A stretch of DNA of 64,000 nucleotides from Escherichia coli (lineage in GTDB: Bacteria; Pseudomonadota; Gammaproteobacteria; Enterobacterales; Enterobacteriaceae): assembly GCF_003019035.1 (NCBI RefSeq), contig NZ_CP027447.1; one strand, written 5' to 3'. Numbering within the stretch: position 1 is the stretch's first letter; each line of letters begins with the position of its first letter. Below are positions 26,501-29,500 of the stretch, piece by piece. The position numbers are program-made.

Positions 26501-29500
26501 CGATCATGCAAACAACGCCCAAAAACTACTTGGACTTTCAGAAGGTGAAGAACTGACTAAGTCAGCTGTAGCTGTTAAAGATTTAGTTCAATATTTCAAT
26601 GGATTATATAAAGAGAAGATTAAATCAGAAAATGTTGGTAAAACGGTAGGTAGTGACTGGCCACGACTTCAAAGAAATTTACAAGATTTACTTGAAGATA
26701 TAGCAACGAAACAGCAGCAAATGGATCGGAATAATTTTGCGAACATCAGTAATAATTTTTATTACTATAATAAGGCCCGGGAAAATACTAAAAATATAGA
26801 ATTTAAGACATTAAAGAGCAGGCAGGAATTTTTGAGTGCAGTAATTAATCTTAATGAAAGCAGATTGCGTTCATCTGATCCGGCGGCTCCAGCAATACAA
26901 GCTATTAATGCCTTCATGGATAAAGGAAATCATCTACAAGATTTATACTCTAATAAATCTCTTTCAAAAGCGGATTTAGAGCGTAGGAATGAGATCCTGC
27001 GTGCTCAAGTTATTAGTGGTCTTCAGGCGTCAGAGGAGCTGGCAAAACTTCTTATTGCCAGCGGAGTTATGTTATAGGAGGTCATTATGAACGATGTGCA
27101 AAATCGACGAATACTGGCATTGCTCAATATGCTGTACTATGCCTTAGGAAACCGAACAACTTGCGATATATGTCACAAATATTTTATTCTGGTTTTGTCG
27201 GTAATGAATAATCTGACAATTAATTATGGCTCGCAAACGTCACCAGAACTGACTGGTATTAGTTATGAAGATGCTAATGATTTGATCACTGAATTAATAC
27301 TGTTTATTGAAGACGTCAATGCGGATAATGACATGGAATATCCCGCACACTTGAATAAAATTCAAGCTCTTCTTAATTTTGCCGTGGCTAATTAAGCCAT
27401 TCAGTATCTAAAATTAGCACCTCAAGAGGCGATCTTTTGAGGTGCTTTCCCTTAATAATCAATCCCTATTTGCGCCTTAACACCGGCATCAAACGCATGT
27501 TTGATGGGGCGCAGCTCACTCACCGTATCCGCCAGTTCAAGAATATCCCGATGACAGCCTCGACCCGTGATAATCACCGTCTGTTGATGTGGACGTTCAT
27601 TTAACGCCTGCACCACTTCTTCCAGTGGCAAATAGTCATACGCCACCATATAAGTCAGCTCATCGAGCAAAACCATATCCAGTGAAGGATCGGCCAGCAT
27701 TCGTTTGGCATGTTGCCAGACTTCACGGCAGGCCGCGGTATCAGATTCGCGATTTTGTGTATCCCAGGTAAAGCCCGTTGCCATCACCTGAAACTCAACG
27801 CCATGTGGCTCCAGTAGATTGCGCTCGCCATTAGGCCAGGTGCCTTTAATAAACTGCACGACGCCCACTTTTTTGCCATGGCCTACTGCACGAGTTGCCG
27901 TACCAAATGCCGCGGTGGTTTTGCCTTTTCCATTGCCGGTAAAGACGATGATAATACCGCGTTCATCCTGGGCCTGGGCCACACGAGCATCGACTTTTTC
28001 TTTCACTCGCTGCTGACGCTGTTGGTAGCGTTCATCACTCATTGGGAAATTCCTGGTTTACGGCCCGGTTGGGCGTCAAAGGTCATGCCGGTTTTACGGC
28101 GGCTGTCATCGCCCATCAGCCAGAGGTAGAGCGGCATGATATCAGCGGGGGTTTTAAGTTTCTGTGGATCTTCGGTCGGGAAGGCGCTGGCACGCATTGC
28201 GGTGCGCGTACCGCCTGGGTTAATGCAGTTGACGCGCAGGCGCTGCTGATATTCATCGGCCAGTACCTGCATCATCCCTTCGGTGGCAAATTTCGACGCT
28301 GCATATGCGCCCCAGTTGGCTCGTCCCTGACGTCCAACGCTTGATGAAGTAAAGACCAGTGAACCGGCGTCCGATTTGAGTAATAAAGGAAGCAGTGCCT
28401 GGGTGAGCATAAAGGTGGCATTAACGTTGACCTGTATGACGTCCTGCCAGACCTGTGGATTTTGTTCGCTCATTGGACAAACATCGCCGAGCAATCCGGC
28501 ATTATGCAAAACACCATCCAGACGCGGATAATTAACGGCAATGCGCTGTGCCAGTTGTTGGCAATCTTCGGACGTGCAGGTCAGCAAATCGAGAATAAAC
28601 CACTGTGGCTGACGCCCAGTTTCTTCGTTTATGTGGCTGGCTACCTGACGTAATTTTTCTTCATTACGGCCCAACAGAATCACTGTCGCACCATAGCGTG
28701 CATACGTCATCGCGGCTTCACGACCAATACCATTGCTGGCTCCCGTCACCAGGATAATGCGATCATTGAGTAAATCTTGTTTTGGCTGGTAATGCATGGC
28801 TACTCCTCAACGACGTTGTCTGTCGCGCTGCCAGTGTACTTTAAGACTTTGGGGCTTTATGCCTGAAACAGAAGGGCATTTCAATCAGCCTGGGGCGATA
28901 ACACCGCAAAATGGATACTTTGTCATACTTTCGCTGCAATAACATCTCTGCGAGACGGCTTAACATGCCTGTTGTAAACTGTGAGCCAAAGCGTTGTTTA
29001 ACCAAGGTGGGGACTCGTGGAATTGTTGTCTGAATATGGTTTGTTTTTGGCGAAAATCGTTACCGTTGTGCTAGCGATTGCGGCGATTGCCGCCATTATA
29101 GTCAATGTTGCTCAACGTAATAAACGCCAGCGTGGCGAGTTACGGGTCAACAATCTCAGCGAACAGTATAAGGAGATGAAAGAAGAACTGGCCGCGGCGC
29201 TGATGGACTCACATCAGCAAAAACAGTGGCACAAAGCGCAGAAGAAAAAGCACAAGCAAGAAGCGAAAGCAGCAAAAGCGAAAGCCAAACTGGGCGAGGT
29301 GGCAACTGACAGTAAACCCCGCGTCTGGGTGCTGGATTTTAAAGGCAGCATGGACGCCCATGAAGTGAACTCGCTACGTGAAGAGATAACGGCGGTACTC
29401 GCAGCATTCAAACCGCAGGATCAGGTTGTACTCCGTCTGGAAAGCCCTGGTGGCATGGTGCATGGTTACGGGTTGGCGGCTTCGCAGCTGCAGCGTCTGC

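Follow-up and report, generated by a model that had tools for sequence, protein, structure and literature searches.

We analysed an open reading frame (ORF) at positions 27087–27395 of a 64,000-nucleotide (nt) stretch of the Escherichia coli chromosome (contig NZ_CP027447.1; the whole stretch is hereafter called the window). This ORF, which encodes a protein of 102 amino acids (aa), is the downstream member of a self-contained accessory operon of two genes, the first of which encodes a predicted lipoprotein precursor. Comparison of homologous cassettes indicates that the 102-codon ORF is a real gene under selection. Tentatively, we read the pair as a conflict module that is divided between the envelope and the cytoplasm, with the small protein as its intracellular partner.

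The 102-codon ORF is a conserved gene inherited with its upstream neighbour

The first-pass annotation of this DNA, made from the sequence alone, had placed the ORF 9 nt past the stop codon of the lipoprotein gene and behind an AGGAGG ribosome-binding site, and had identified a CDICH motif in its product. Reading of the sequence and the ORF list bore out each of these points, and the strings it had quoted, namely RRILALLNMLYYALG, CDICH (residues 26–30), YFILVLSVM and EDANDLITELILFIEDVNADNDMEY, are all found. It had also proposed that a frame not conserved in homologous cassettes would mark the ORF as a chance open frame. The frame, the length and the N-terminus are kept in every one of these cassettes, as would be expected of a real gene. 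An ORF at the same position begins MND/EVQNRR in the three E. coli allele classes (class I, that of the window; class II, L002; class III, L003/L004), E. whittamii, E. albertii, Citrobacter sp. ANG330 and the Logan contig L009. Because the N-terminal MND.Q of the small protein is invariant, the start codon can be regarded as fixed. The product is 102–105 aa long in the alleles and genera examined and 95 aa long in a distant homolog carried by an integrative conjugative element (ICE). Between the E. coli classes, the proportions of nonsynonymous (pN) and synonymous (pS) differences in the small gene are 0.14–0.15 and 0.81–0.84, respectively, with synonymous sites saturated and a pN/pS of ~0.16; in closer, unsaturated pairs the ratio of nonsynonymous to synonymous substitution rates (dN/dS) is 0.09–0.19.

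The small gene and the lipoprotein gene are strictly co-inherited. Both are adjacent in all three E. coli classes, E. whittamii, E. albertii, Citrobacter, L009 and the Duffyella ICE, and they diverge in parallel, with lipoprotein/small protein identities of 67/75%, 54/63% and 27/35%. The tight junction and a strong Shine-Dalgarno sequence are kept in every homolog, including the 27–35% identical ICE copy, and this sequence evidence supports the earlier suggestion that the two genes are co-expressed. In RefSeq both carry the label “hypothetical protein”. Fusion of the two products by stop-codon read-through was considered and rejected: the ORFs of class I, class II and Citrobacter share a frame, with TAG and three codons between them, those of class III and the ICE copy do not, and the arrangement is not conserved.

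Layout of the cassette

The gene order in the window is rnm-yciO-yciQ-rluB, the two ORFs annotated “hypothetical protein”, and cobO(btuR)-yciK-sohB-yciN-topA. The cassette, composed of the lipoprotein gene and the 102-aa gene, lies between rluB and cobO/btuR, and its G+C content (GC) is 0.31–0.38 versus >0.5 for the flanks. The segment 25880–27460 is 100% identical to E. coli SCU-301. The empty site of K-12 has only 39 nt between rluB and btuR, carrying a different hairpin, and represents a clean 39-nt replacement with another terminator. Direct repeats and an integrase were sought at the ends of the cassette and none were found. The cassette contains the following features.

25905–25924, + strand: terminator hairpin of rluB at the left edge of the cassette; cassette-specific, as the K-12 hairpin differs
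25970–25987, unstranded: perfect palindrome TTCATA-N6-TATGAA upstream of the operon; candidate operator
26055–27077, + strand: predicted lipoprotein precursor of 340 aa, ending in GVML before the TAG stop codon, with lipobox LSG-C17 and Ala at +2
27076–27081, + strand: Shine-Dalgarno sequence AGGAGG, which overlaps the stop codon of the lipoprotein gene and is separated from the ATG by 5 nt
27087–27395, + strand: small gene, encoding the 102-aa acidic (isoelectric point, pI, 4.4) protein, predicted to be a soluble helical bundle
27162–27176, + strand: codons for C26-D-I-C29-H30, of which the two cysteines, unlike H30, are invariant throughout the family
27348–27350, + strand: codon for His88, which is invariant throughout the family and may be the third ligand of a Cys2-His site
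27416–27446, unstranded: 13-bp hairpin between the small gene and the convergent cobO, folding on both strands; probably a bidirectional terminator
26200–27480, unstranded: highly divergent tract comprising the lipoprotein codons from ~50–70 onward, the small gene and the terminator

Every Escherichia allele has the palindrome at 25970–25987, and Citrobacter and L009 have it almost unchanged, despite the divergence of its surroundings. Its pattern has a single match in the window versus 0.2 expected by chance, and it lies ~43 bp upstream of a putative start site placed from a possible −10 element (TACTAT, 26010–26015). Based on its sequence, the palindrome could be an operator or activator site for a regulator. 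Around the cassette, Rfam gave no match above threshold. Between E. coli and the E. albertii locus L016, the segment 25909–26196 (the leader and the first ~45 lipoprotein codons) is 93–98% identical, whereas the adjacent coding sequence of rluB is 86–92% identical. That this identity exceeds that of rluB suggests that the 5′ end of the cassette is under constraint or has recently recombined.

The small protein is predicted to be soluble and to remain in the cytoplasm

The sequence and the structural model predict that the small protein is soluble and cytoplasmic and lacks an export signal. The AlphaFold2 (AF2) model, built from nine sequences, has a predicted local distance difference test (pLDDT) score of 82.6 and a predicted template modelling score (pTM) of 0.79, and contains helices at residues 3–21, 27–42, 60–78 and 82–100. 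The first-pass annotation described the N-terminal third as hydrophobic and the protein as membrane-associated or secreted. The hydrophobicity proved too weak for a transmembrane segment or a signal peptide. Over 19-residue windows the Kyte-Doolittle mean peaks at 1.06, every segment stays below transmembrane grade, and helix 1 is amphipathic. In the AF2 model helix 1 is packed within the soluble bundle (pLDDT 85–89). Furthermore, residue 14, within helix 1, is an Asp in classes II and III; in the ICE homolog P0043 this helix contains Lys, Asn, Asp and His and has a mean hydropathy of −0.66. The sequence NRRILAL loosely resembles a twin-arginine motif; Sec or Tat export was nevertheless rejected on account of the invariant N-terminus, Asp14 and the polar residues in homologs, the low hydropathy and the packing of helix 1. 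The acidic C-terminal half reported earlier is present in the string EDANDLITELILFIEDVNADNDMEY, and the protein is acidic as a whole, with a pI of 4.4–4.8, or 5.6 in the ICE copy.

Residues invariant across the family are M1, N2, Q5, L16, N22, C26, C29, S52, E54, I58, A63, N64, I67–L70, L72–I74, D76, H88 and I92. In composition-preserving shuffles of the small protein, CxxCH arose in 0.036% and CxxC in 2%. The reservation that the motif may be coincidental did not hold, as it occurs above chance and C26-x2-C29 is kept in all alleles and genera examined. The proposal that CxxCH represents a pattern for heme c attachment or metal binding survived in part. The two cysteines are conserved throughout, but the histidine is not: H30 is kept in Escherichia and Citrobacter and replaced by a lysine in P0043 (motif C-D-N-C-K). 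Covalent heme attachment requires periplasmic export, and because the family lacks an export signal it would have no access to the periplasmic Ccm machinery. Judged from the sequence and the model, the small protein does not belong to the heme c proteins.

It is correspondingly far-fetched to regard the small protein as a c-type heme protein of the periplasm or membrane, or as another exported metalloprotein, partnering the lipoprotein outside the cytoplasm: although CDICH is present in all Escherichia and Citrobacter homologs at a chance frequency of only 0.036%, and although four-helix-bundle cytochromes such as cytochrome c′ and b562 exist and resemble it in the CxxCH string, a length of ~100 aa and the predicted helical bundle, the protein has neither signal peptide nor transmembrane segment, helix 1 has Asp14 or polar residues in homologs, the motif histidine is a lysine in P0043, the motif lies at the start of helix 2 and not near the C-terminus as in cytochromes c′, and neither a cytochrome family (in Pfam and NCBIfam) nor a cytochrome fold was matched.

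The CxxC that opens helix 2 and the His88 of the final helix are jointly compatible with a possible Cys2-His(-carboxylate) zinc site or a redox dithiol. Two types of known zinc-binding domain were considered and rejected. A ZAS domain features H-x3-C-x2-C and an adjacent sigma factor gene; here position −4 from C26 is the invariant Asn22 and the neighbouring genes are rluB and cobO. C2H2 and FCS zinc fingers, in which a pair of histidines follows CxxC by ~12 residues, gave weak matches only (zf-FCS, E-value 0.14; ZBTB24, E-value 0.07), with no histidine at +12.

The upstream gene encodes a predicted outer-membrane lipoprotein

Based on its sequence, the upstream gene product is predicted to be a lipoprotein precursor that undergoes lipidation. 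A lipobox of the pattern [LVI][ASTVI][GAS]C is found in every homolog (LSG-C17 in E. coli, ISG-C in Citrobacter and LSS-C in the ICE copy), preceded by an h-region with a mean hydropathy of 1.8–2.5. The residue at +2 is an alanine, which under the Lol sorting rules suggests targeting to the outer membrane. Two further invariant cysteines, Cys66 and Cys86, flank a hypervariable loop. The protein is all-helical and its mature part has no transmembrane segment; its AF2 model is poor (pLDDT 49.9) and the fold matches were uninformative. The most conserved parts are the first ~50 mature residues and the last ~40 (301–340). Within allele classes every region is under purifying selection, and between classes the Cys66–Cys86 loop region evolves fastest, with a pN/pS of 0.6–1.0. 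In E. albertii NBRC 107761 (L016, 2898–3919) the lipoprotein gene is split into ORFs of 244 and 96 aa with the small ORF intact, which reflects either a pseudogene or an error of the draft assembly.

Distribution and allele classes

A cassette-type junction is present in at least 1237 of 5426 complete E. coli genomes (~23%). Among these carriers, 844 match ≥80% of the window version and ~390 match the first 391 nt only, followed by a diverged allele. One carrier, MNCRE44, is presumably a strain of sequence type 131 (ST131). The cassette is absent from ~77% of E. coli, and others have IS1 insertions or frameshifts. In some strains (Ec-U3, L005; H53) IS1 occupies or interrupts the cassette between rluB and cobO, and Ec-U3 keeps only the cassette-type left junction.

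From ~26200 to ~27480, DNA identity between the E. coli classes is 57–80%, compared with 97–100% in the flanks. In comparisons of class I with E. albertii and of class III with E. whittamii, divergence is about that of the flanking genes. There are three deeply diverged classes, two of which are common to E. albertii or E. whittamii; either they are older than these species or they are transferred along with their flanks. Comparison of classes II and III reveals a mosaic at the DNA level, with the lipoprotein centre 59–71% identical and the lipoprotein C-terminus and the small gene 91–95% identical. The same rluB–cobO site is also occupied in Citrobacter sp. ANG330.

A distant homolog resides in an integrative conjugative element of Duffyella

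When 1.84 billion cluster representatives were searched exhaustively with a profile, only Escherichia-type sequences and one distant cluster, P0043 (95 aa, E-value 1.6e-7), were recovered. P0043 originates from Duffyella gerundensis and lies within an ICE of the PFGI-1 class. It directly follows a lipoprotein homolog of 347 aa with the lipobox LSS-C (27% identity, pairwise E-value 8e-36), and the junction between the two genes is 14 nt long and contains GGAGG. The pair forms an islet with an Mrr_cat nuclease gene on the opposite strand, with a GC of 0.28–0.34 versus 0.56 for the element. The module is mobile and of low GC; in Escherichia and Citrobacter it occupies a constant position on the chromosome, in Duffyella a cargo slot of an ICE.

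This slot, between a TIGR03747/DtrJ-like gene and a RAQPRD gene, is a variable cargo hotspot in ICEs of the PFGI-1 class (L018–L030), where it holds the following cargo.

Pantoea: Septu (PtuA, E-value 7.8e-119; PtuB, E-value 6.8e-77)
Enterobacter: OLD-like ATPase-Toprim (E-value 1.2e-46)
E. typographi and one metagenome contig: metabolic genes
Rouxiella and Klebsiella: genes of unknown function

Further contents of the slot in this set (ICEs of Pantoea, Enterobacter, Klebsiella, Rouxiella and Erwinia) include a gene of the metallo-beta-lactamase (MBL) fold (Apyc1-like, weak) with three small ORFs, and a 465-aa protein of unknown function.

Other searches extended the family no further. A word-indexed search with the lipoprotein profile gave no new relatives, the GTDB species genomes contained the pair in E. 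whittamii and E. albertii only, JGI metagenomes yielded Escherichia-like copies only, and the pair was absent from IMG/VR and from 50,697 phage records. Plasmid carriage was considered on account of PLSDB matches and rejected: these “plasmids” (L017, CP054249.1, pBone4_2; H66; H67) are chromosome fragments or a whole chromosome with the trp operon, rluB and cobO. L017 is full of frameshifts, and the PLSDB records with the locus are mislabelled or noisy assemblies. With PADLOC 2.0, the two window proteins matched zero families at E-value ≤1; strong matches of neighbouring ICE cargo to PtuA/PtuB and ATPase-Toprim served as positive controls. In the literature, neither the protein accessions nor the locus is mentioned in any paper found. 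The existence of the genes is already annotated; as a family, judged by sequence, they match nothing described.

Possible roles of the pair

In architecture, with the gene for an exported lipoprotein ahead of that for a small cytoplasmic protein, the pair resembles known two-gene modules, but it could be assigned to none of them; the kind of module is itself a matter of analogy. A toxin/immunity or sensor/anchor pair, of which the first-pass annotation was reminded, is a conceivable reading. Im7/Im9 and the epsilon antitoxin are neutralisers, small, acidic and helical, whose genes closely follow those of their partners, and the small protein resembles them in size, acidity, helical bundle, downstream position and translational coupling. 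In Myxococcus, SitA lipoprotein toxins are paired with cytoplasmic SitI immunity proteins. The cassette shares with SitA/SitI an outer-membrane lipoprotein gene followed by a gene for a small cytoplasmic protein, polymorphic alleles and mobility. However, it has neither homology to SitA/SitI nor a C-terminal toxin domain, its variable part is central, and E. coli is not known to have TraAB outer-membrane exchange. Structural matches of the small protein to the bundles of MLKL 4HB, plant CC/CC-R and fungal HeLo domains were rejected as generic: designed helical bundles score equally, identity is 7–14% and membrane insertion is unsupported.

The reading to which we tentatively incline is a conflict module, directed at other strains or at invaders, that combines an envelope component with a cytoplasmic one. 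The lipoprotein would be exported by Sec, lipidated and sorted by Lol to the outer membrane, with a C66–C86 disulfide enclosing the fast-evolving loop. The small protein would stay in the cytoplasm, where CxxC at the start of helix 2 and H88 may form a zinc or redox-thiol site. Translational coupling may set a fixed ratio of the two proteins; the lipoprotein would act at the envelope and the small protein would be its cytoplasmic partner, either an antidote or immunity-like factor or a regulatory binder. A fuller version of this proposal, which we put forward just as tentatively, is an undescribed two-component conflict system (anti-phage or entry-exclusion, or lipoprotein toxin and antidote) with ancient trans-species alleles at rluB–cobO, shuttled by ICEs, in which the small protein would be a zinc- or thiol-dependent cytoplasmic switch or neutraliser. 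A conflict role is favoured by the Septu and OLD-like cargo in the slot of sister ICEs, the cross-species allele classes, the fast-evolving Cys loop and the presence/absence polymorphism.

Several observations weigh against a conflict module. Neither protein matches toxin, immunity, defence, exclusion or regulator families in Pfam, NCBIfam, PADLOC, PHROGs, PDB profile or AFDB searches. Once exported to the periplasm or outer membrane and folded, the lipoprotein can no longer encounter a cytoplasmic protein. The small gene is 91–95% identical between classes II and III, yet their lipoprotein centres differ strongly, and for this reason the two proteins would not be a strictly cognate pair. The ICE slot holds metabolic and unknown cargo too, which weakens the argument from the ICE location. 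Lastly, superposition of the AF2 model and the AFDB model of a homolog with 74% identity gave a template modelling (TM) score of only 0.57, so that the topology of the bundle is uncertain.

A narrower interpretation, which we consider unlikely, is that of a lipoprotein toxin with a cytoplasmic immunity protein, similar to SitA/SitI or to nuclease colicins and their Im proteins, in which neighbours are harmed and the acidic bundle protects the producer. It would account for the gene order, the tight coupling and the small, acidic downstream product, as well as for the ancient allele classes, the presence/absence polymorphism and the low-GC, mobile character of the module. However, the lipoprotein has no detectable toxin domain, and its conserved C-terminus and variable but still homologous centre are the reverse of what is found in polymorphic toxins. 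Classes II and III have the small protein in common but not the lipoprotein centre, and the E. albertii type strain has a split lipoprotein gene next to an intact small ORF. To our knowledge, E. coli has no delivery route by outer-membrane exchange. The common small protein, the conserved lipoprotein C-terminus and the lack of a detectable toxin domain tell against toxin–immunity in its strict form.

Equally unlikely, in our judgement, is a biogenesis or regulatory factor outside any conflict, where the small protein would sense zinc or redox state and regulate its own operon by feedback, or would act as a holdase on the precursor of the lipoprotein, and the lipoprotein would have a housekeeping-like role at the envelope of those lineages that retain it. 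The small protein is better conserved than the lipoprotein, selection within classes is purifying, the chromosomal position is fixed in several species, and the conserved upstream palindrome suggests regulated expression. Against this, the small protein is acidic and has no DNA-binding motif, and the cassette is low in GC, mobile in character and dispensable, as shown by its absence from ~77% of E. coli and by the IS1 insertions and frameshifts in others.

Less probable again is an anti-phage or entry-exclusion function, in which the lipoprotein blocks a receptor or DNA entry in the manner of Llp, Cor, TraT or Ltp and the small protein serves as regulator or effector in the cytoplasm. Like Llp (T5), Cor (phi80/N15), TraT (F) and Ltp (TP-J34), the lipoprotein is encoded on mobile DNA and has a variable exposed region. 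The Septu and OLD-like systems in the sister-ICE slot, the Mrr_cat gene in the same islet, the predicted hypervariable disulfide loop and the strain-dependent distribution also agree with such a function. However, the known examples are single phage or plasmid genes, whereas this pair is absent from phage and plasmid collections (including the 50,697 phage records and IMG/VR, unlike classical superinfection-exclusion lipoproteins) and has an obligatory cytoplasmic partner; we know of no exclusion lipoprotein that needs one. Moreover, there is no PADLOC or PHROGs match, and the ICE slot also carries metabolic cargo.

Significance

About one quarter of complete E. coli genomes carry this pair, everywhere annotated as two “hypothetical proteins”. 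Its traits resemble those of genes that act in conflicts with phages, mobile elements or rival strains: alleles older than the species, a hypervariable putative disulfide loop in a predicted outer-membrane lipoprotein, and carriage as low-GC ICE cargo in a slot where sister elements hold defence systems. If the pair has a phenotype, it would be a new small system with an unusual division between envelope and cytoplasm; if it has none, it would be an ordinary lineage-restricted orphan operon. In either case the heme idea can be dropped, and the CxxCH motif is probably not what it seemed.

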